Source of the DNA: Vicinamibacterales bacterium
Lineage (GTDB): Bacteria > Acidobacteriota > Vicinamibacteria > Vicinamibacterales > JAMQPK01
Direction of reading: 5' to 3'
NCBI GenBank assembly: GCA_963850725.1
Contig: CAWKMQ010000022.1
Coordinates: 128,347 to 192,346, forward strand
DNA: 64,000 bases
Below are positions 5,835 through 64,000 of this stretch, piece by piece. The notes beneath the pieces were generated by a model, which saw only the letters and a list, made by a program, of their open reading frames with translations, had not been told where the DNA came from and ran no database searches. Both the position numbers and the translations under genes were made by a program. Every line of letters starts with the position of its first letter. The stretch's first letter is position 1.

Positions 5835-7313
5835 CGACCTTGCCCATGGCGTTTCGCGGCAACTGCGACACGCACGCAAGGTTCCTCGGAATTTTGTAAG
5901 GGGCCAGACGCGTTCTGGCCCATTGTTTCAATTCCTCGAGATCGAGTCTCGCGTCCGGCCGCAGTTCGGCCGCGCAGCAGACGCGCTGACCCCACTCCAC
6001 ATCGTCCACGCCCACGACGACGCACTCGGCAATGGCGGGATGCGTGCGCAGCACCTCCTCGATTTCGAGCGCGGAGATCTTGTGTCCGCCGGATTTGAGG
6101 ATGTCGACGCTCGCGCGTCCGAGCAGGCGATACGCGCCGTCCTCGACGACGGCGGCATCGCCGGTGCGAAACCAGCCATCCACAAACGCCTCTCGTGTGG
6201 CGTCGGGCTGCCTCCAGTATTCCGAGAACACCCCCGGCCCTTTGAGCTGCAGCTCGCCGTCAACGATGCGTGCCGATACTCCGGGCAGGGGCTGGCCGAC
6301 ATACCCGGGCCGCCGATCGCCGTGCAGTGGATTCGAAAGCGCCATCCCGACCTCTGTCATGCCATACCGTTCGAGGAGGACGTGCCCGCTGATCTCCTTC
6401 CATCGATCGAGCACGATTCTGGGAAGCGCCGCGGATCCGCTCATCATCAGGCGCAGCGCGTGGCAGCCGCGCGAGCGTGACTCTCGAATATCCGCCGGCG
6501 CGCCGTCCCACGAACCGATCAGCCGGTGATAGACCGTCGGAACCGCGCTGAACAGCGTGAGCTCGCCCGACGAGAGGCGTTCCCACGTCGATTCGCTCTC
6601 GAACCGGGGCGCCATTTCGAGCACCGCGCCGCTCCAGAGCGCGCACGAGACGATGTTGAGGATTCCGTGCACGTGATGCAGGGGAAGGACGAGCAGCGTG
6701 CGATCGGATGCGGTCCATTCCCAGGCGGTCACGAGCGACTCGATCTGCGCGGTGAGATTGGCGTGCGTCGTGACGACGCCTTTCGGACGGCCGGTCGTGC
6801 CGCTGGTGTAGACGATCAAGGCGCGGCGGTTCATTAGGTTCGTTGGGTTCGTAAAGTTCGTAGAGTTCGTAGGGTTCGTCAGGTTCGTGGAGTCGTAGCG
6901 TCAGGTTCGTCGGGTTCGTAAGGTTCGCGCTCGTGTAGAAGCGCGCGCCTGCCGAGCTCGCGAGGGGCTCGATCGCTGCCTGGTTCTCAGCGTCCGCAAC
7001 CACAATGGACGCGTCCGAATCCTGAATCAGGTACGCGAGCTCGGCCGGTGGGTGAGACAGCGGCAGCGGGACGGCGATGCCGCCGGCGAGCCAGATGCCC
7101 CACTGCACGGCCACGTACTCGAATCCCGGCGTGACGAGAAACGCCGACGCGTGCCTCATCGAGATCGCTGCGCCCGTCGAGCAGTCGCGCTGCCACGTCC
7201 GCCGCCGCGGCGCAAAGCTGATCGTATGTGTAGCGTCCGTTGCGATCGAAAATGGCCGTACGAGTCCCATGAGCGCTTGCGCGCGCCACGATGGCAGGCA
7301 CCACGGGAGCCAT
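5773..7313 (-). CDS. AMP-dependent acyl-CoA synthetase/ligase (malonyl- or fatty-acyl-CoA ligase-like), with two apparent frameshifts and an internal 9-nt repeat array
   Basis: ORF 5773..6834 carries IVYTSGTTGRPKG, YGMTE, TGD and KIPR. The N-terminal part is spread over ORFs 6987..7397 and 6260..7270. The ATG at 7313 lies 1 nt after the secretin stop (TAG-C-ATG). Confidence 0.75.
6837..6930. repeat. Tandem 9-nt array with core GGTTCGT (about 9 units), inside the acyl-CoA synthetase CDS
   Basis: Read directly: ggttcgttg ggttcgtaa agttcgtag agttcgtag ggttcgtca ggttcgtgg, then a 13-nt irregular segment, then ggttcgtcg ggttcgtaa ggttcgcgc. The same core forms the left arm of the array at 49482. 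Confidence 0.9.
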
Positions 7314-9812: not shown

Positions 9813-9867
9813 GATGCCCGCAGTTACGAAGGCGAAGTCCCACGGTACCTTAAAGATAGCACTTTCC

Positions 9868-9900
9868 AGGGCTTAGGGCTCAGGGCTTAGGGCTGAGGGG
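9868..9900. repeat. Heptamer tandem array AGGGCT(T/C/G) (minus sense CCCTAAG/CCCTGAG), 4-5 units
   Basis: Plus strand reads agggctt agggctc agggctt agggctg agggg. On the minus strand, stops fall at TAA 9889-9887 (the DUF2723 stop), TGA 9882-9880 and TAA 9875-9873. Confidence 0.85.
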
Positions 9901-19706: not shown

Positions 19707-19782
<76 letters not shown>

Positions 19783-23200: not shown

Positions 23201-23300
23201 AATTATAGTCGAAAGTCGCAGGTCGAAAGTCGCTAGTCGCAAGTCCAGTCGCGCCAGTCGATCGACCGTGGCGCACTGCGACTGCGACTTGCGACTACTC
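23201..23300. repeat. Mirrored heptamer array: AGTCG(C/A)A about 8 times (period 7), then TGCGACT 3 times
   Basis: GTCG starts at 23208, 23215, 23222, 23229, 23236, 23248 and 23257. Inverted units begin at 23279, 23285 and 23292. The array lies between the tsf 3' end and the pyrH start. Confidence 0.85.
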
Positions 23301-23898
23301 GGCGCGCTTTCGCCGATCTTGTAACGCGCGAAGCGGCTGACGTGATGTTCTCGCCCATTTTCGCGGTGGCGTCGGCGATGAGCTGCGAGATCTTCACGTT
23401 CGGATCGCGGATGGACTTCTGATCGAGCAGGACGACCTGTTCGAAAAACGCGTCGAGCTTGCCCTCGACGATTTTCTCGATGATTTCCGGCTTCTTGCCC
23501 GACTGGGCCATCTGGGCGCGATAGATGTCTTTTTCCTTCTCGAGCACGGCCGCGGGGACTTCGTCGCGCCGCGCGTACTTCGGATCGGCCGCCGCGATGT
23601 GCATCGCGATTTCCTTCACGAGCGCGCCGAACTGGTCGGTGCGCGCCACGAAATCGGATTCGCAGTTCACCTCCACCAGGACGCCGATCTTGCCGCCCAT
23701 GTGGATGTAGCTGCCGATCGACCCCTGGCTGGTGGTCCGGCCCGCTTTCTTGGCGGCCGACGCCAGCCCGCGCTTGCGGAGCAGGGTGGTGGCCGCTTCG
23801 ATGTCGCCGTTCGCTTCGGTGAGCGCCGCCTTGCATTCCATGAAGCCGGCGCCGGTCATGTCACGAAGCTTCTTTACGAGTGCAGCAGAAATTTCCAT
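23295..23898 (-). CDS. tsf: Elongation factor Ts (short form), with an apparent frameshift near the 3' end. The stop is uncertain.
   Basis: ORF 23233..23898 carries [20 protein letters not shown]-type N-terminus, [10 protein letters not shown] and LLDQ. The C-terminal [11 protein letters not shown] is in another frame. A candidate TAG lies at 23297-23295. Confidence 0.85.
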
Positions 23899-40408: not shown

Positions 40409-40478
40409 GACTCGGACTCCAGGACTCCAGACTCTTAGGACTCTTGGACTCCAAGACTCCTAGACTCCCAACTCCTCG
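40409..40478. repeat. Tandem roughly 8-nt array with core GACTCC (minus sense GGAGTC), about 8 units
   Basis: ACTC starts at 40410, 40416, 40424, 40431, 40440, 40448, 40456, 40464 and 40471. The array overlaps the last 6 codons and the stop of lapB. Confidence 0.85.
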
Positions 40479-41677
40479 GGTTCCTTTGCCGGCGCGATCC
40501 GATCTTCGACAAAGGTGTTCCATTCGTGGCAGTGGGGACATTGCCAGAGCAGCTCGGTGCTGCGATAGCGGCAACGCATGCAGATATGCGGGTCCATGTA
40601 GAAGACCGCGTGTTTGGTGAGATCGACGTAACGCTGGACCAGCGAGCTTTCGAAGTCGAGACGCGCGAGCACCTGCCAGATGGCCTGATGCAGCGTCAGG
40701 GCGTGAGGATTGTGGACCAGCGCCTCGAAGAGCAGTTCCAGAGAACGGCCGGCGTCGCCGCGCGCTTCGACGTGTTTCGCCAGCGCCAGCCGGGCGCGCC
40801 AGTCCTGCGCGTTCGCGGCAATCAGCTTGCCGAGCAGCTGGGCGAACCGTTCGGGCGTGCCCATCTTCTCGTAGGCGAGCGAGAGACGATCGAACGTGAG
40901 GTAGGCGCGCTCGGGCGCCTTGCCGATCACTTCCTCCCAGATGCCCGTCGGCCTGCGCCATGCGCTCCTCGCGCGCGTGGATGTCGCCGAGATTCAGATA
41001 CGCGGGAACACCGCGGGATCGAGATCGATCGCCGACTGAAAGCGCGCCGTGGCGCCCGCATAATCACCCCTGGCTACCGCCTGCAGACCGAGCTCGTTTT
41101 CGAGAAACGCGAGGATCGCCTGGCTGCGGCCGTCCTCGGCGCCGGCCTGGTTGCCGATAGAGCGCCGCACTTCGTATGCTTCCTGCCACTGATGCTGATC
41201 CTCGTGGAGTTTCTCGATATTGAGCAGCGCGTACTGGTTCTTCGGATCGAGCTTGATGACCTCGTTGAACGCCTCGAGCGCGCGATCGACGAAGCCGCCA
41301 CGCTTGAAGTCGAGACCGAGGCACAGCAGCACGTGCGCATGCTCGAGGCGCGTCAACCGGGGCCGCTGCAGGAGGCTCTGGTGAATGTTGATGGCCCTGG
41401 CCACCTGCCCCTTCTCGCGATACAGGCTGCCGAGCAGGAGGTGGATTTCCAGCGCATCGCCGAGATTTTCGGCGGCCTTGCTCAGCTCCTCGATGGCGAG
41501 ATCGATCTGATTGGTGACGAGGAAATTCAGGCCGACGATGTAGTGCAGCGATTCGGGCACGCGGCGGCGATCGATCAGCCGACCCGACCGCAGCTTGTAG
41601 CGCTCCCACGCTTTCCCGACCGTCAGCCCGATGAGCAGCGCGACGAGTGCGGCGAGGAAGGGATAGTAGGCGCTCAA
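40460..41677 (-). CDS. lapB: LPS assembly protein LapB/YciM-like (TM + TPR + C-terminal rubredoxin-type zinc site), with about 2 apparent frameshifts and a TTG start
   Basis: The N-terminal TM helix and TPRs are at the tail of ORF 40994..42370 (YYPFLAALVALLIGL, LLLGSLYREKGQVARAINIH). The C-terminus is in ORF 40460..40930, with CMRCRYRSTELLWQCPHCHEWNTF. Frame switches lie near 41000 and 40940. Confidence 0.75.
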
Positions 41678-49481: not shown

Positions 49482-49600
49482 GTTCATGGTTCGTGGGTTC
49501 GTCGGTTCGTGGGTTCGCGAGGTTCGGTCGCGAAGCGACGAATCGGCGACGAAACCTGACGAACCTGCGAACTTCACGAACCCGACGAACTCACGAACTT
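49482..49600. repeat. Mirrored oligonucleotide array: GGTTCGT-type units 6 times (period about 8), then ACGAAC-type units 7 times (period about 9)
   Basis: GTTC starts at 49482, 49489, 49497, 49505, 49513 and 49522. CGAA starts at 49540, 49550, 49560, 49568, 49577, 49586 and 49594. The array fills the gap between convergent mdh and sdhB. Confidence 0.9.
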
Positions 49601-49608
49601 AAGCCCGT

Positions 49609-50372
49609 TCAAGCCCCCCGCCCTTCCAGATCGCGCGCCTGTACTCCGCGAATCATCCGCGCGATGTTCGAAATCGGGATCAGTTTAGGGCAGACGGCTT
49701 CGCATTCGCCCTCGTTGGAGCAGTTGCCGAAGCCTTCGGCCTCCATCTGCTCGACCATCCGCACCACGCGGCGCTCGCGTTCGGGCTCTCCCTGCGGCAG
49801 CAGGGCCAGATGGCTGATTTTTGCGCTGGTGAACAGGTGCGCGGCCGCGTTCTTGCACGCCGCGACGCACGCGCCGCAGCCGATGCAGGCCGCCGCGTCC
49901 ATGGCGAGATCCGACTTGTCCTTCGGCACCGGGATCGCATTGGCATCCTGCGCGCCGCCCACACCCACCGAGATGTAGCCGCCGGCCGCGAGGATTCGAT
50001 CGAACGCCGAGCGATCGACCGTGAGATCCTTCAACACGGGGAAGCCCTTGGCCCGCCACGGCTCGATGACGATGGTCTGGCCGTCGGTGAACCGGCGCAT
50101 ATGCAGCTGGCAGGTGGTGGCGCCCGGGTCGGGTCCGTGCGCGACGCCGTTGATCATGCAGCCGCAGGCGCCGCAGATGCCCTCGCGGCAGTCCGAGTCG
50201 AAGGCGATCGTGTCTTCCCCCTTGCGGATGAGCTCTTCGTTGACGACATCGAGCATCTCGAGGAACGACATGTCGATCGAGATGTCTCTGGCGACATAGT
50301 CGACCAGGCGCCCGGGCTGATCCTTGGCCGGCTGGCGCCAGACTTTGAGGTTGACCGTGATGGCTTTGCCGC

Positions 50373-50376
<4 letters not shown>
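49609..50376 (-). CDS. sdhB: Succinate dehydrogenase/fumarate reductase iron-sulfur subunit (GTG start)
   Basis: The 2Fe-2S, 4Fe-4S and 3Fe-4S cysteine clusters are present: [21 protein letters not shown] and [12 protein letters not shown]. Confidence 0.88.
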
Positions 50377-54212: not shown

Positions 54213-54219
<7 letters not shown>

Positions 54220-54254
54220 CAACTGACGACTGAGAACTGAAGACCACCAACCGA
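54213..54254. repeat. Heptamer tandem array (A/G)ACTGA(A/C/G), 6 units of period 7
   Basis: aactgac aactgac gactgag aactgaa gaccacc aaccgac. TGA falls at 54217 (the sucC stop), 54224, 54231 and 54238. Confidence 0.9.
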
Positions 54255-54257
54255 CAC

Positions 54258-55124
54258 ATGGCGATACTCCTAGACAAGTCCACGCGGTTGATCGTTCAAG
54301 GCCTCACCGGCAAGGAAGGCACCTTTCACGCGAAGCAGGCGGCGGCGTACGGCACGCAGGTCGTCGGCGGCGTCACGCCGGGGAAGGGCGGCACGACCCA
54401 CGAAGGCTGGCCGGTTTTCAACACGGTCGCCGACGCGGTGAAAAGCACGGGCGCCAACACCTCGGTGATCTTCGTACCGGCAGCGTTTGCGGCCGACGCG
54501 GTCATGGAGGCGGCTGACGCCGGCCTGCGCCTCGTCGTGTGCATCACCGAAGGCATTCCTACACTCGACATGATGCGCACGTTCACCTACCTCAGAGAAA
54601 AGCCGACGCGCGTCGTCGGACCGAACTGTCCGGGGGCGATTTCGCCGGGCAAGGCGAAAGCCGGCATCATCCCCGGCCACATCTGCCGCGAAGGGCGCGT
54701 CGGTATCGTGTCGAAGAGCGGCACCCTCACTTATGAAGCCATTCACCAGCTCAGCCAGCTCGGCATGGGTCAGTCATCGTGCATCGGCATCGGCGGCGAC
54801 CCGCTCATCGGCACCTCGTTCGTGGATGTGCTGAAGCTGTTTCAGGACGATCCCGAAACCGACGCCGTGGTGATGATTGGCGAGATCGGCGGCACGGCCG
54901 AAGAGGAAGCCGCGCAATACATCAAGAAGTCCTTCAAGAAGCCGGTGGTGGGCTTCATCGCGGGTCAGACGGCGCCTCCCGGGCGCCGCATGGGGCATGC
55001 CGGGGCGATCATCGCCGGCGGCAAGGGCACCGCGAACGAGAAGATGGCGGCTCTGACGGCGGCCGGCGTGACGGTGGTGAAGAGCCCGGCAGACATCGGA
55101 ACTGCTGTAAAGAGCCTGCTGTAA
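54258..55124 (+). CDS. sucD: Succinyl-CoA synthetase alpha subunit
   Basis: Intact ORF with [31 protein letters not shown] and MGHAGAI. Confidence 0.92.
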
Positions 55125-57173: not shown

Positions 57174-58202
57174 ATGGCGACTCCAATAAAGGTGAATCGA
57201 ATCGGCCTGGAACCGCAGATCTACAAGGGCGGCAAGACGACGCTGTGCGCCGGGTGCGGGCACAACGCGATTTCAGAGCGCATCATCGAGGCGTTTTATG
57301 AGATGGGCGTCGATCCCAAACAGGTAATCAAGCTGTCGGGCATCGGCTGCTCCAGCAAGAGCCCCGCCTATTTTCTGGGCGGCTCTCACGGGTTCAACGC
57401 GGTGCACGGCCGGATGCCGTCGGTGGGCACGGGCGCGATGCTGGCGAACCAGAAGCTCATCGCCATCGGCGTCAGCGGCGACGGCGACACCGGCGCCATC
57501 GGCATCGGTCAGTTCGTCCACCTGATGCGGCGCAATCTGCCCATCATCTACATCATCGAAGACAACGGCTGCTACGGCCTCACGAAGGGGCAGTTCTCGC
57601 CGACGGCCGACGTCGGGTCGAAGCTGAAAAACGGGGTGGTCAACGACCTGCAGCCGATCGACACGTGCGCGCTGGCCGTCCAGCTCGGGGCGACGTTCGT
57701 GGCGCGGTCGTTTTCGGGCGACAAGAAGCAGCTGCTCGCGCTGCTGAAGGCGGCGCTCAGTCACCGTGGAACGGTGATGCTCGACGTCATCTCGCCGTGC
57801 GTGACCTTCAACGACCACGAAGGGTCGACGAAGAGCTATGCCTACGTGAAGGATCACGACGATCCGCTCGAAGAAGTGAGCTTCGTGCCGTTCTTCGAGG
57901 ACATCTCGGTGGAATACGACCCGGGCACGACCCAGGAAGTGAAGATGCACGACGGATCGCGTCTGTTTCTGAAGAAGCTCGAGGAGTCCTACGATCCGAC
58001 CGACAAGCTCGCGGCCATGCGCGTCCTGCACGAGACGGCGCGCCGCGGCGAATTCGCGACGGGGCTGATCTACATCGAGCCCGATCGCGACGATTTCCTC
58101 CGCCAGCTCAACGTGGTCGACGAGCCGCTGGCCTCATTGCCCCTCGAGCGCACACGCCCGTCCAAGGCCGCGCTCGACGAGATCATGGAATCCTTGCGCT
58201 GA
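57174..58202 (+). CDS. korB: 2-oxoacid:ferredoxin oxidoreductase beta subunit (TPP-binding)
   Basis: Intact ORF with LCAGCGH, GIGCSS, SGDGDTGAIG and NNGCYGLTKGQ-type motifs. Confidence 0.88.
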   Translation: MATPIKVNRIGLEPQIYKGGKTTLCAGCGHNAISERIIEAFYEMGVDPKQVIKLSGIGCSSKSPAYFLGGSHGFNAVHGRMPSVGTGAMLANQKLIAIGVSGDGDTGAIGIGQFVHLMRRNLPIIYIIEDNGCYGLTKGQFSPTADVGSKLKNGVVNDLQPIDTCALAVQLGATFVARSFSGDKKQLLALLKAALSHRGTVMLDVISPCVTFNDHEGSTKSYAYVKDHDDPLEEVSFVPFFEDISVEYDPGTTQEVKMHDGSRLFLKKLEESYDPTDKLAAMRVLHETARRGEFATGLIYIEPDRDDFLRQLNVVDEPLASLPLERTRPSKAALDEIMESLR

Positions 58203-58213
58203 GCTTCGCGGTC

Positions 58214-58285
58214 ATGGCAGATGGCAGAATGGCGGATGGCAAAGGGCCGTCTGCCATGCCATCGTGCCAGTCTGCCATGTGCCCT
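58214..58285. repeat. Mirrored array: ATGGC(A/G)G units 4 times (period 7-8), then TCTGCCAT/GCCAT units
   Basis: ATGGC starts at 58214, 58221, 58229 and 58236. Inverted TCTGCCAT units are at 58250 and 58271. The array lies between convergent korB and the 58296..58499 ORF. Confidence 0.85.
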
Positions 58286-60786: not shown

Positions 60787-61607
60787 ATGGCTGACGAAAC
60801 GAAACCCCCTGCGCCTGGCGCGCCGAACGCACCTGGCTGCACCCGTCGCACCCGGCGCACCCGTCGCACCTAACGCACCTGTCGCACCCGACGCACCCGT
60901 CGCACCCAGTGCGGCTCCGGTTGCGCCAAACCAGCGGCTCCAGCTGCGCACGCCGCACCTGGCGCACCGGCGCACCTGCCGCACCCAAACCGGCCGTGCC
61001 GCCCAAGCCGGCGGCGCCTCCGCCGCCTTCGGTGGATCTGGCCGGCAAAACGACGACGGCAGCGGCCACCGCGGCGAAGGTCAGCTCGCGCGATCCTGAC
61101 GACTCGTCGCCGCTCGTCACGCGGCGCGTGTGGCTGGGTATGGCATGGGGAGCGTTCTCGGCGGCCTCGGCGGCCGCGCTGGCGGCGACCGGCCGCTTCA
61201 TGTTTCCCAACGTCCTCAACGAGCCGCCGCAGCAATTCAAGGTCGGCTTTCCCGCCGACTTCGGTATGGGTGTGGACGAGCGGTTCAAGGAATCGAACGG
61301 CATCTGGATTGTCCGGACGGCCGACGATATCGATCAGCACGCCAGCGGGTTCTACGTCCTGAGCACGACCTGCACTCACCTCGGCTGCACGCCGAACTAT
61401 CTCGCCGCCGAAGGCAAGTTCAAGTGCCCGTGTCACGGCAGCGGATTCCGCACGACGGGCGTCAATTTCGAAGGACCGGCGCCGCGACCGCTCGAGCGCG
61501 TGGGCGTCGCGCTCGCCGAGGATGGTCAGATACAGGTCAACAAGGCGCGCAAATTCCAGCGAGAGCTCGGACAGTGGATCGATCCCGAGTCGTTCCTGCG
61601 AATCTGA
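60787..61607 (+). CDS. Rieske [2Fe-2S] subunit of a cytochrome bc-type complex, with a Pro/Ala-rich repeat N-terminus and at least 2 apparent frameshifts
   Basis: CTHLGC and CPCHGS are in ORF 60909..61607, with a twin-Arg/TM segment TRRVWLGMAWGAFSAASAAALA. The ATG at 60787 opens MADETKPPAPGAPNAP, then the frame is lost at 60838 inside the 9-nt array. Confidence 0.8.
60829..60910. repeat. Tandem 9-nt array GCACCCGTC (9 units), coding for (APx)n
   Basis: GCACC starts at 60829, 60839, 60848, 60857, 60866, 60875, 60884, 60893 and 60902. The single 10-nt spacing, between the first two units, coincides with the reading-frame break. Confidence 0.9.
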
Positions 61608-61649
61608 ACACTGCGAACCGACGACTGAAGACTGACAACTGAAGACTGA
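61601..61649. repeat. Heptamer tandem array (x)ACTGA(x), 7 units of period 7, between the Rieske and cytochrome b genes
   Basis: aatctga acactgc gaaccga cgactga agactga caactga agactga, then tATG. TGA falls at 61605 (the Rieske stop), 61626, 61633, 61640 and 61647. Confidence 0.9.
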
Positions 61650-61650
61650 T

Positions 61651-62484
61651 ATGGCCACAGAGACCAAAACGATAAAACCGCAGGAAAGCGCCGCCACGCG
61701 CTTCTGGAACTGGCTGACCGAAACACAGGTCTGGACCTCGGTGTTCCGCCACGAGCGGCCCGATACCGATCGCAATCGCGTGCTCGTGATGCTGTCGAAC
61801 GTCTTCCTGCATCTGCACCCGGTGCGGATCAGGAAGTCGGGCGTCAAGCTGCGCTACACGTGGTGCATGGGAGGGCTGAGCTTCTTCCTCTTCCTGGTCC
61901 TCACCTTTACCGGCTTGCTGCTGATGTTCTACTACCGGCCGACGCTCGAATACGCCTACAACGACATCGTCGGTCTGCGCGAGCATGTGCCGCTCGGCAT
62001 CATGCGCGAGATGCACCGGTGGGGCGCGCACGCGATGGTCATCACGGTGTGGCTGCACATGTTCCGCGTCTTCATGACCGGGTCGTACAAGCCGCCGCGC
62101 GAGTTCAACTGGAGCATCGGCGTCATCATGCTGGTGCTGACGCTGCTGCTGTCGTTCACCGGCTACCTGCTGCCGTGGGACCAGCTGGCGATCTGGGCCA
62201 TCACGGTCGGCTCGAACATGGCGCGCGCGACACCGTTCCTCGGGCACGAAGGGCCGGGCGCGGCGCTGCTGGCGCTGGGCGACGTCAAGCTGATTCACGC
62301 GGCCGACGATGCGCGGTTCGCGCTGCTGGGCGGCACGTTCGTCGGCGAAGGCGCGCTGCTGCGGTTTTACGTGCTCCACTGCGTCGGGTTGCCACTGGGC
62401 ATTGCCGTGCTGATGGCGGTGCACTTCTGGCGCGTGCGCAAAGACGGCGGCATCTCGCGGGCCACTTTAGGCGGTAGCTGTTAG
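61651..62484 (+). CDS. Cytochrome b (b6-like N-terminal, haem-binding part)
   Basis: Intact ORF with 4 TM helices and conserved His residues ([34 protein letters not shown]). Confidence 0.82.
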
Positions 62485-62501
62485 CCCGTAGCTGGTAGCA
62501 A
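62467..62501. repeat. Heptamer tandem array (G/T)TAGCNN, 5 units of period 7
   Basis: TAG falls at 62468, 62475, 62482 (the cytochrome b stop), 62489 and 62496. The next ATG is at 62506. Confidence 0.88.
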
Positions 62502-62505
62502 AACT

Positions 62506-63583
62506 ATGGATTTCATCAAAGGAATCTTTAACGTCATCGCCGATCCGCGGCTGTACTTCGTGTTGATGGTGCTGTCGCTCGTCTTGATGGTGTGGAAGCG
62601 CGAGGCCTTCGCCTCGAAAGCCGTGGGATACGGCGTGCTCGGCTTTCTGACGCTGTTCTTCGTCCTCGGCGGCCTGGATCCGAACTTCCGGCTCATCATC
62701 ACGAAGCCCGACAACGTGCCCATCGTCGGGCTGATCTTCCTGCTGGTGTTCTTCACCTGGTACTCGATGCGTCAGGCCGTGCTGAACGACCAGCGCATCG
62801 CAAAAGGTGAGGGGCCCATCGAGAAGGCCGAGTCGGATCGCGTGTGGGTGTGGCCGGACCTCGTCTACACCGAGCTCATCTCGCTGATCCTGTGCTCCGT
62901 CGTGCTGATCGTCTGGTCGATCCTGCTGAAGGCGCCGCTGGAGCAGCCGGCGAACCGTGCCGTGACGCCGAACCCGTCGAAGGCCCCGTGGTACTTCCTC
63001 GGCCTGCAGGAAATGCTCGTGTACTTCGATCCCTGGCTGGCGGGCGTCGTGCTGCCGAGCCTGATCATCGTCGGGCTGATCGCCATTCCGTACATCGACA
63101 GGAACCCGAAGGGAAATGGCTACTTCACCTTCAACGAGCGAAAGACCGAGATCACGCTGTTCCTCTTCGGCTTTGTCGTCCTGTGGTCGTCGCTGATCGT
63201 GCTCGGCACGTTCCTTCGCGGGCCGAACTGGAACTTCTTCGGCCCTTCGAGTACTGGGACACGCACAAGCTGGAGGCGCTGACCAACGTCAATCTGTCGG
63301 AGTACTTCTGGGTGCGCGTGCTCGGGCAGGGGCTGCCGACGAACTACTTCATTCGAGAACTGCCGGGAATTCTGCTGTCGCTGGTGTACGTCCTGGTGCT
63401 GCCGGTGGTCCTGGCTCGAGGCGCTGTTCAAGAGCTTCTGTCGGCAAGCTCGGCGCTCCGCGCTTCTACGTCACCGTCTTTCTGTTCCTGATGATGATGT
63501 CGCTGCCGGTCAAGATGCTGCTTCGGTGGATCTTCAACCTGAAGTACATCGTGGCGATTCCCGAGATCTTCTTCAATATCTGA
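62506..63583 (+). CDS. Cytochrome b C-terminal part / subunit IV-like membrane protein with extra TM helices, with 2 apparent frameshifts
   Basis: PNPSKAPWYFLGLQEML and IPYID are in ORF 62506..63282. The reading continues in ORF 62844..63491 and a third frame (YVTVFLFLMMMSLPVKMLLRWIF...FFNI*). Frame switches lie near 63240 and 63425. Confidence 0.75.
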
Positions 63584-63589
63584 GACGCT

Positions 63590-64000
63590 ATGGCTGAAAA
63601 AAAGGCTGTCGGTCACGCCTATAACATCGACTTCCTGAACGTCGTCTTTGCGGCGTCGAGCATCTTCCTGTTCCTGTCCACGATCTGGATGGTGTGGGAC
63701 GACTTCGACCGCGAGTGGAAGAACACGCAGCGCCAGTTCACGCAGCTCGAACTCGAGGTGACGCGCGCGCAGCTGGCCCAGACCGAGCGTGGCATCGACA
63801 AGACCAAGATGACCGGCCTGCAGCAGCAGCTCGCCGCCGCTGAAAAAGCGATGGAGGGCAACCGTCAGCAGATCGACGTGCTGAACGACGAGATGGCCGA
63901 GATTGATGCCAGGCTCTATCGGGTGAGTCAATCGGCGCAGTTCGCGAAGGCGACCTACGACGTCCACCGATATGCGTTCGAGGAACGGCGGACGAAGGAC
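63590..64000 (+). CDS. TM-anchored coiled-coil protein, 3' end cut by the window edge. It may be the next subunit of the bc-type complex.
   Basis: Hand translation from ATG 63590 gives MAEKKAVGHAYNIDFLNVVFAASSIFLFLSTIWMVWDDFDREWKNTQRQF...; this ORF is absent from the supplied track because it has no stop. No haem motif is visible in the part seen. Confidence 0.5.
   Translation, partial: MAEKKAVGHAYNIDFLNVVFAASSIFLFLSTIWMVWDDFDREWKNTQRQFTQLELEVTRAQLAQTERGIDKTKMTGLQQQLAAAEKAMEGNRQQIDVLNDEMAEIDARLYRVSQSAQFAKATYDVHRYAFEERRTKD

Follow-up and report, generated by a model that had tools for sequence, protein, structure and literature searches.

Why should both internal junctions of a respiratory operon be built of short tandem repeats that bring a stop codon into all three reading frames? 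The question is raised by the Rieske/cytochrome b operon of a Vicinamibacterales bacterium (Acidobacteriota), which lies near the end of the window, that is, the whole stretch of 64,000 nucleotides analyzed here (contig CAWKMQ010000022.1, positions 128,347 to 192,346 of the forward strand). A first-pass annotation of this DNA had noticed two arrays of 7-nt units and offered three readings of them: a barrier that terminates frame-shifted ribosomes, an expansion by slippage seeded on the stop context, or a binding site. We lean towards the view that the junction arrays belong to a clade-wide Vicinamibacterales class of AT-rich tandem arrays with units of 7-9 nt, which turn over by slippage and whose stops in all frames are a by-product.

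The two junction arrays

The genes and arrays concerned are the following.

60787..61607, + strand: Rieske iron-sulfur protein gene (Pfam Rieske, 60909-61607), with two frame changes in the N-terminal Ala/Pro-rich region
61601..61649, + strand: heptamer array 1, NNACTGA, 7 units of which 5 contain TGA, occupying the Rieske/cytochrome b spacer
61651..62484, + strand: cytochrome b gene, N-terminal, b6-like (Pfam Cytochrome_B)
62467..62501, + strand: heptamer array 2, KTAGCNN, 5 units, covering the cytochrome b end and the spacer before the subunit IV-like gene
62506..63583, + strand: cytochrome b C-terminal (subunit IV-like) gene (Pfam Cytochrom_B_C, 62506-63282)

Array 1 is composed of the units AATCTGA, ACACTGC, GAACCGA, CGACTGA, AGACTGA, CAACTGA and AGACTGA, followed by a T and the cytochrome b ATG at 61651, which leaves 1 nt between array and start codon. 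TGA falls at 61605, 61626, 61633, 61640 and 61647 (frames 0, 0, 1, 2, 0), the first of these, in unit 1, being the Rieske stop. Array 2 is composed of TTAGGCG, GTAGCTG, TTAGCCC, GTAGCTG and GTAGCAA, followed by AACT and the ATG at 62506, with TAG at 62468, 62475, 62482, 62489 and 62496 (frames 2, 0, 1, 2, 0). The sequence bears out the coordinates, the five stop positions and the stopping of all three frames first reported for each array. The layout of array 1 as seven 7-nt units also stands, except that units 2 and 3 are degenerate and lack TGA; Tandem Repeats Finder (TRF), which finds both arrays alongside several others in the window, calls period 7 in array 1 at 61620-61649 only.

On inspection of the sequence, the Shine-Dalgarno (SD) 4-mers GGAG, GAGG and AGGA are absent from 61608-61650 and from the array 2 spacer as well. 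Neither an intrinsic terminator (GC-rich hairpin plus T-tract) nor a sigma-70 promoter (-35/-10) was found in 61590-61660 or 62460-62510, and the sole match in the window at the gathering score of Rfam 15 is a tRNA at 19710-19782, the junction arrays being unmatched. The RNA of array 1 is weakly structured (minimum free energy -5.5 kcal/mol, z +1.42 against shuffles), and array 2 folds with a z of +0.69.

That the real stop is one unit of the array, as originally claimed, holds at both junctions. For cytochrome b, however, the TAG at 62482 that had been named as the stop is probably an artefact of a sequencing indel. The nearest genomes are metagenome-assembled genomes (MAGs) of Vicinamibacterales (Acidobacteriota), with cytochrome b identities of 98% for locus L001 and 97% for locus L002. 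An additional base at about 62455-62459, by comparison with these two, carries the window's frame past TAG 62468 to TAG 62482. Because of this extra base, and because about 35 cytochrome b orthologues terminate with GGISGPL immediately before the stop, the conserved, ancestral stop is probably TAG 62468-62470, in the first unit of array 2.

The extra base is part of a wider pattern. The true Rieske start is the ATG at 60787 (MADETKPPAP, as in L001), and the window needs two frame changes to match its relatives; in the subunit IV-like gene, alignment reveals three 1-nt indels, at about 63245, 63425 and 63441. Altogether, 60787-63583 (2.8 kb) differs from the intact L001 and L002 by six or more 1-nt indels that shift the frame: the Rieske gene has two, cytochrome b has one ahead of its stop, and the subunit IV-like gene has three. 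Six frameshifts within so short a stretch of respiratory genes speak for sequencing errors; that the genes are pseudogenes is unlikely. The window sequence appears error-prone in the style of a long-read assembly.

A 9-nt repeat at 60839-60907 (GCACCCGTC, 7.7 copies) was weighed as a third array of this kind, placed at a junction upstream of the Rieske gene, and rejected. It encodes an Ala-Pro-Val linker in the Rieske N-terminal region and appears intergenic under naive open reading frame (ORF) calling owing to the frameshift errors; relatives have a similar Ala/Pro-rich stretch.

Turnover at orthologous junctions

The same junctions were compared in 40 other Acidobacteriota loci. Between the Rieske and cytochrome b genes, TRF arrays are present in only 4 of the 40, and most relatives have plain spacers of 2-15 nt. 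Where repeats do occur, they differ: the spacer of L002 reads CATCTAG, AAACTAA, AAACTGG, AATCTGG; L021 has ACTGA units with the Rieske stop outside the array; and L003 and L004 carry unrelated octamers. Between cytochrome b and subunit IV, 5 of the 40 loci have TRF arrays. There the length of the TAGC array varies, L002 having about 3 units, the window 5 and L001 about 7 (the alignment gaps measure 14 nt and 24 nt), and in L021 TCAGT units are followed by ACTGA units, forming an inverted pair.

The unit family of array 1 is seen again at a third junction of the window, between sucC and sucD, and the relatives' counterparts of this junction could be taken from the flanks of their cytochrome b loci.

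54214..54244, + strand: AACTGAC, 4 units, the second ACTGA-family array; the sucC stop TGA 54217 lies in unit 1 and the sucD ATG at 54258, 13 nt beyond the array end; fold z +1.74

The junction compares as follows.

Window: AACTGAC, 4 units; sucC stop in unit 1
L001 (sucD identity 93%): GTAAGGG, 3 units; sucC stop in unit 1
L006: CCAAGAA, 8 units; sense strand without a stop
L025: GTGGGTC, 5 units; one sense-strand stop, a single TGA
15 others: no array; spacers of -1 to 147 nt

An exact-protein look-up of the window sucD returned no record.

Downstream of the cytochrome bc cluster, at the same position, inverted array pairs are found in L001 (14812-14887), L002 (14778-14884) and L021 (14844-14997). 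They are built of the unrelated units ATTGGGAG, GGGATCA and GGGTGCC, the hairpin being kept and the sequence not. Unrelated units occupy the same junction even between genomes of 93-98% protein identity. The copy-number comparison proposed in the first-pass annotation yields unit-sized length changes between close relatives, which fit expansion driven by slippage.

Distribution across the clade

The survey sample comprised 781 kb, namely the window and the 40 Acidobacteriota loci. TRF arrays of at least 3 copies with periods of 7, 8 and 9 number 42, 31 and 40, whereas the same 781 kb after Markov shuffling yields 7, 3 and 2, an excess of about 6-20-fold. Although 87% of the DNA is coding (37 high-GC sequences, the window and 36 relatives), only 5 of the 42 period-7 arrays lie in coding sequence, the other 37 being non-coding or situated at a contig edge; most arrays of period 6 and period 9 lie within coding sequence. 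Among the cases assigned to coding sequence, weak GC-rich repeats predominate; a few are overlaps with a gene's 3' end or rest on doubtful gene calls.

Within co-directional spacers, the arrays are strongly displaced towards the upstream gene, with a median relative position of 0.08 from its stop (Kolmogorov-Smirnov p = 6e-11). The array starts within 10 nt of the stop in 32 of 58 cases and ends within 10 nt of the next start in 8 of 58. By spacer class, a count independent of start calls, co-directional spacers (62.8 kb) hold 60 arrays and convergent spacers (8.0 kb) hold 4. Their occurrence is limited to transcribed spacers that follow a stop codon. The scan suggested in the first-pass annotation, run here on the 781 kb, accordingly finds heptamer arrays enriched both over shuffles and at gene ends.

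Of 62 arrays, about half (34) form the arms of inverted pairs. Those that are unpaired have a GC content of 47%, compared with 62% for ordinary spacers, and because of this low GC they fold weakly (-0.12 versus -0.27 kcal/mol per nt). The stronger notion that the arrays are less structured than their composition predicts was abandoned: the four junction arrays of the window have positive z values, and the pooled unpaired arrays have a mean z of -0.58.

The clade is also SD-poor. In the 37 high-GC loci, GGAG, GAGG or AGGA is found at -18 to -4 of 27% of ATG starts, compared with 11% in a control window. When the same loci are pooled, ATG starts show a slight enrichment of A at -11 to -8.

A side observation concerns four loci of the sample. 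L009, L013, L018 and L020 have cytochrome b genes 89-93% identical and a Vicinamibacterales-like context, yet their records are labelled as Bifidobacterium, Woeseiaceae or Lacipirellulaceae MAGs; these labels probably reflect mis-binning or mislabelling in the public records.

The slippage reading and its difficulties

The arrays expand, shrink and are replaced fast between close relatives, in unit-sized steps. Slipped-strand mispairing would be the most likely cause of the length changes, and the arrays persist only in transcribed spacers behind a stop codon. That the real stop appears as a unit may follow from their position: arrays abut or overlap the ORF end, and a C-terminal indel or the loss of a stop would be caught by the next unit. 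Cytochrome b in the window offers an example of such capture, as the extra base shifts its stop by only 14 nt, to the third unit.

The idea that such an expansion was seeded on the stop context fares unevenly. While turnover is of the slippage type, seeding is no general rule: of 41 stop-proximal arrays, 13 include the stop itself, and where the array begins only past the stop, the unit that holds the stop fits the consensus no better than out-of-register controls do (0.24 compared with 0.26). At the two operon junctions, where the first units (AATCTGA and CTYTAG-G) are positionally conserved gene ends, seeding is plausible.

At most, the arrays might serve as low-GC, A-rich, weakly folded and SD-free spacers that keep the downstream start accessible in a GC-rich, SD-poor mRNA. 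Such a role before the downstream start is possible and would be modest.

Several observations weigh against slippage as the whole explanation. Divergent spacers contain no arrays in 16.0 kb, compared with 14.5 expected (Fisher p = 7e-4), which neutral slippage does not predict. The strands are unequal: in the sense strand of the unpaired arrays, A exceeds T in 18 and falls below it in 6 (n = 24), and the 5' arm of the hairpin is G-rich in 13 of 15 inverted pairs. A separate point limits the test of the by-product view: the sense strand holds more stops than the antisense strand (105 to 67 in total, 84 to 38 for stop-proximal arrays). Because the sense strand is C-poor, composition explains this excess, but that composition could itself have been shaped by selection. 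Moreover, units are reused within a genome: allowing one mismatch, 31% of within-locus pairs more than 400 nt apart share a unit, compared with 4% between loci (odds ratio 10, p = 5e-9). The slippage reading thus leaves unexplained the anchoring to stops and the absence from divergent spacers, the spread of one unit over several spacers, and the unrelated units of close relatives. Unit reuse, the divergent-spacer absence and strand asymmetry are hints of a mechanism of dispersal, of a factor acting in trans or of selection at the RNA level. It must also be considered that the sample consists of loci around one operon, not of whole genomes, and that its genes were called by a home-made codon-bias caller trained against the other five frames.

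Alternative explanations

The most serious alternative is that the arrays are elements of translation initiation or coupling, acting in cis as RNA sites that are bound by the ribosome itself, by ribosomal protein S1 or by a Csp- or CsrA-like protein and that drive SD-independent initiation downstream, a role that MacGregor (2015) hypothesized for the TAACTGA repeats. At three window junctions the arrays end 1, 4 and 13 nt before an ATG that has no SD, the geometry known from the TAACTGA repeats (forward, with a modal end 1 nt before the start and few SD sequences; PMC4679880), and heptamer repeats near start codons in Nostoc change reporter output (10.1101/2022.06.06.494920). The ACTGA family recurs at two window junctions and is start-proximal in L021, the sense strand is A-rich and the clade is SD-poor. 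Arrays of three ACTGA-NN units are also present in metagenome contigs of 28-69% GC, where those lying within 40 nt upstream of an ATG-initiated long ORF are forward in 18 cases and reverse in 8. The idea that ACTGA arrays are always aimed at a start codon had nevertheless to be given up: both orientations adjoin gene ends in these contigs, with a bias of only about 2:1. In addition, most orthologous junctions are array-free and work with spacers of 1-15 nt, the same junction bears unrelated units despite 93-98% protein identity, and the arrays of the clade are anchored to the upstream stop (32 of 58) rather than to the downstream start (8 of 58). An initiation element is therefore possible, if rather unlikely, as the general explanation.

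A further proposal is that Vicinamibacterales possess a system in which genome-specific units of 7-9 nt are repeatedly installed behind stops, either as single A-rich spacers or as inverted pairs that form 3' hairpins lacking a U-tract. Within-genome unit reuse, unrelated replacement at orthologous spacers and the absence from divergent spacers would together imply a copying mechanism or a co-evolving trans-acting RNA-binding factor. For the short tandemly repeated repetitive (STRR) sequences and the TAACTGA repeats, something of this kind has been suspected for a long time but, to our knowledge, never identified. We regard a system of this kind as decidedly unlikely.

Dedicated dispersal can be framed more narrowly, as a mobile or templated process that puts genome-specific 7-9-nt units behind stops. 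Inverted pairs would then be whole elements and single arrays half-elements, in the manner of repetitive extragenic palindromic (REP) sequences or miniature inverted-repeat transposable elements. It would account for the reuse of unit families within a genome, the 34 of 62 arrays in inverted pairs, the strict association with 3' ends, and the hairpins of L001, L002 and L021 at one operon-end position with unrelated units; array 2 also repeats GTAG, the tetranucleotide head of REP elements. Against it, the length changes are unit-sized, the units fall far short of the length of any known mobile element, and no terminal repeats, target-site duplications or transposase were seen, although RAYT (REP-associated tyrosine transposase) or other candidate genes were not searched systematically. 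A dispersal process of this sort is improbable.

The reading that the layout of the two junctions first suggests, a selected barrier of stops in all frames against frame-shifted or read-through ribosomes entering the next cistron or a 3' hairpin, fares worse. Part of its premise is sound. Out-of-frame stops, held in the first-pass annotation to be scarce in a genome of roughly 66% GC (the window measures 64%), are indeed rare in the +2 frame, with one per 111-155 codons, but not in the +1 frame, with one per 34. The arrays do end long off-frame ORFs, as expected of a barrier: two that run through the Rieske and cytochrome b genes, 170 and 205 codons long, terminate exactly within an array. All four tight-junction arrays of the window stop three frames, as do 8 of 14 junctions of 30-80 nt with arrays, compared with 19 of 112 (17%) without, and the sense excess of stops in stop-proximal arrays has the direction that a barrier would require.

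What selection for stops should have left is, however, not seen. Co-directional arrays contain 105 sense-strand stops, compared with 109 expected from unit-column shuffles, and unpaired arrays 49, compared with 51.8 +/- 7.7. Of 25 unpaired arrays, 8 have a consensus unit with a stop on the sense strand and 7 one with a stop on the antisense strand, so that the consensus is stop-free in two thirds of them; relatives also have stop-free arrays, such as the 8 units of L006 at sucC/sucD. Between 83% and 91% of ordinary junctions leave at least one frame open, and given that only 19 of 112 stop all frames, no general demand for such barriers is apparent in the clade. Across all co-directional spacers, the sense-strand stop density is 2.5 per 100 nt, below the approximately 2.8 estimated from base composition. 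We conclude that the all-frame stops are a by-product of repeating a low-GC heptamer with a period coprime to 3, because heptamers of 47% GC often hold TAA, TAG or TGA and three or more copies then hit every frame. A selected barrier is very improbable.

Finally, an assembly or sequencing artefact has a practically negligible probability, even in a window with at least six frameshifting indels in 2.8 kb, as the observed errors are single bases and not 7-nt blocks, the array class recurs across 37 loci, and related arrays lie at the same junctions in independent assemblies (L001, L002, L021, L030, L009 and others), which include contig names suggesting short-read assemblers (k141_, NODE_..._cov) and other MAGs.

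Other arrays and features of the window

The window contains 8 TRF arrays of period 7 or 8. Apart from the three junction arrays already described, the following tandem arrays were recorded.

6828..6927, strand not assigned: array of 9-nt units, GGTTCGTNN, 11 copies, with a GGTTCGT core as in the array at 49488
9867..9899, - strand: heptamer array, sense CCCTRAG, 4.6 copies, overlapping the last codons of a TMEM260-like gene, upstream of lolA; fold z +1.86
23207..23296, - strand: inverted pair, AGTCGCA and TGCGACT, a hairpin at the 3' end of gene 23233..23859; -47.2 kcal/mol, z -4.2
40414..40476, - strand: octamer array, sense TGGAGTCC, 7 copies, overlapping the 3' end of gene 40460..40930
49488..49598, - strand: inverted array pair, GGTTCGTG, 5 copies, and ACGAACC, 6 copies, a long hairpin just 3' of gene 49609..50376; -68 kcal/mol, z -6.7
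58214..58285, + strand: inverted pair, ATGGCAG, 4 copies, and CTGCCAT, a hairpin 12 nt past the stop of gene 57174..58202; -52.7 kcal/mol, z -5.6

The single junction arrays fold no better than shuffles (z +0.7 to +1.9), whereas the three inverted pairs reach z values of -4.2 to -6.7. These hairpins (49488-49598, 58214-58285 and 23207-23296), none of which has a T-tract, may be terminators lacking a U-tract or stabilizers of mRNA 3' ends; the one at 58214-58285 was not called by the terminator scan.

In the array at 9867-9899, stops at 9889 (TAA), 9882 (TGA) and 9875 (TAA) fall in three frames, TAA 9875 being the actual stop of the TMEM260-like gene. Its antisense (+) strand reads (GGGCTNA)n, with five G3 tracts at 4-nt spacing that match a G-quadruplex-type motif, and L002 has TTAGGGA-like units. 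The sense strand of the array at 40414-40476 repeats GGAGTC, with an SD-like GGAG, about 6 times, and the gene that it overlaps encodes a LapB-type zinc-ribbon. The GGTTCGT core is shared by 6828-6927 (9-nt units) and 49488-49598 (8-nt units plus an inverted partner), 42 kb apart. After the subunit IV-like gene, a gene at 63590-64000 encodes a membrane segment and then a long coiled-coil-like region, with a weak match to CC2-LZ as its only Pfam hit.

Implications

Stop and start positions at such junctions are unstable, which matters for annotation, and stops in all frames at a junction should not be taken as a designed feature. Array copy number offers a fast strain marker. Any explanation will have to accommodate three regularities: arrays are anchored to stop codons, they are absent from divergent spacers, and the genome-specific reuse of units goes together with rapid turnover. 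If a dispersal mechanism or a binding factor exists, the clade offers many independent unit families in which to search for it. More broadly, a lineage of soil Acidobacteria with cultured members joins the few groups known to have dispersed heptamer families, namely the cyanobacteria with STRR sequences and the Beggiatoaceae with TAACTGA repeats.

Comparison with known systems

The closest counterpart of array 1 is the TAACTGA direct repeat, which occurs in marine Beggiatoaceae, Thiocystis, certain cyanobacteria and a small number of Bacteroidetes (MacGregor 2015, PMC4679880). These repeats are forward-oriented, and their largest class ends 1 nt before a start codon; 14 sets overlap the end of the upstream ORF, and the repeats bring stops into all frames, noted as LITDN-. 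SD sequences are rare, RNA structure is not predicted, and a role in translational regulation has been proposed but is unproven (PMC4679880). No earlier description of stop-phased junction arrays in this kind of genome had been known to the first-pass annotation; this paper already describes heptamer arrays with an ACTGA core whose stops fall in all frames. Array 1 shares with the TAACTGA repeats the heptamer period, the ACTGA core, the intergenic and forward placement with the end 1 nt before the ATG (61649 and 61651), the overlap with the upstream ORF, whose stop lies in unit 1, the stops in all frames, the scarcity of SD sequences, the lack of predicted RNA structure and the presence of one unit at many loci of a genome. 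It differs in that its units (AATCTGA, CGACTGA, AGACTGA, CAACTGA) are degenerate and in no case TAACTGA itself, with only the ACTGA core, 5 of 7 bases, in common. The host, an acidobacterium of 64% GC with a cytochrome b 97-98% identical to those of its nearest genomes, which are Vicinamibacterales, lies outside the reported range. Furthermore, ACTGA is here one of many unit families, and across the clade it is the upstream stop, and not the downstream start, to which arrays are anchored.

A broader frame is provided by the long simple sequence repeats with units of 5-11 nt surveyed by Mrazek et al. in 2007, among which, as summarized in PMC4679880, heptamers are the commonest and slippage was proposed. 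The present arrays resemble them, as far as that summary describes them, in having heptamers as the commonest unit and slippage as the proposed origin, in their excess over expectation (42, 31 and 40 versus 7, 3 and 2 for periods 7, 8 and 9) and in the exclusion from coding DNA of units that are not multiples of 3 (37 of 42 period-7 arrays non-coding or at a contig edge). Unlike in that survey, the lineage is one outside its coverage as summarized, and the summary does not mention stop-codon anchoring or inverted pairs.

STRR heptamers form a hairpin between hupS and hupL in heterocystous cyanobacteria, where roles in transcript stability or translational coupling were suggested (PMC2670836). 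The likeness to STRR sequences drawn at the outset is thus well founded, the hupS-hupL case being a precedent at an operon junction. In both systems, 7-bp tandem non-coding units lie at operon-internal junctions, a few families are found per genome, some arrays form hairpins and the roles proposed are transcript stability or translational coupling. The differences lie in the host and in the units, here NNACTGA and KTAGCNN. The consensus units of STRR1-3 are CCCCAGT, TTGGTCA and CAACAGT. Unlike the hupS-hupL repeat, both junction arrays are single, direct and hairpin-free, although other arrays of the window do form hairpins.

Longer dispersed elements offer a looser comparison. Enterobacterial REP sequences and bacterial interspersed mosaic elements (BIMEs) are palindromic, mobilized by RAYT and marked by a GTAG head, and REP hairpins stabilize upstream mRNA. 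Mycobacterial interspersed repetitive units (MIRUs) and the REP units measure 20-100 nt, and the ORFs of MIRUs overlap the flanking stop and start codons. Like these, the present arrays are found in intercistronic or 3' operon spacers. Unlike REP/BIME sequences, which are imperfect palindromes of 20-40 nt, the junction arrays repeat 7-nt units directly and do not fold stably. The 'ambush' hypothesis holds that off-frame stops within coding sequences limit the cost of frameshifted translation. It rests on the same idea as the barrier first proposed for this operon, but in coding rather than intergenic DNA, and the stop enrichment that it predicts is not seen here.

In the literature searched, no paper on such arrays in Vicinamibacteria was found. 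Taken together, these comparisons place the arrays as a lineage-level instance, new for soil Acidobacteria, of a known kind of element to which the STRR sequences, the long simple sequence repeats and the TAACTGA-like repeats also belong.

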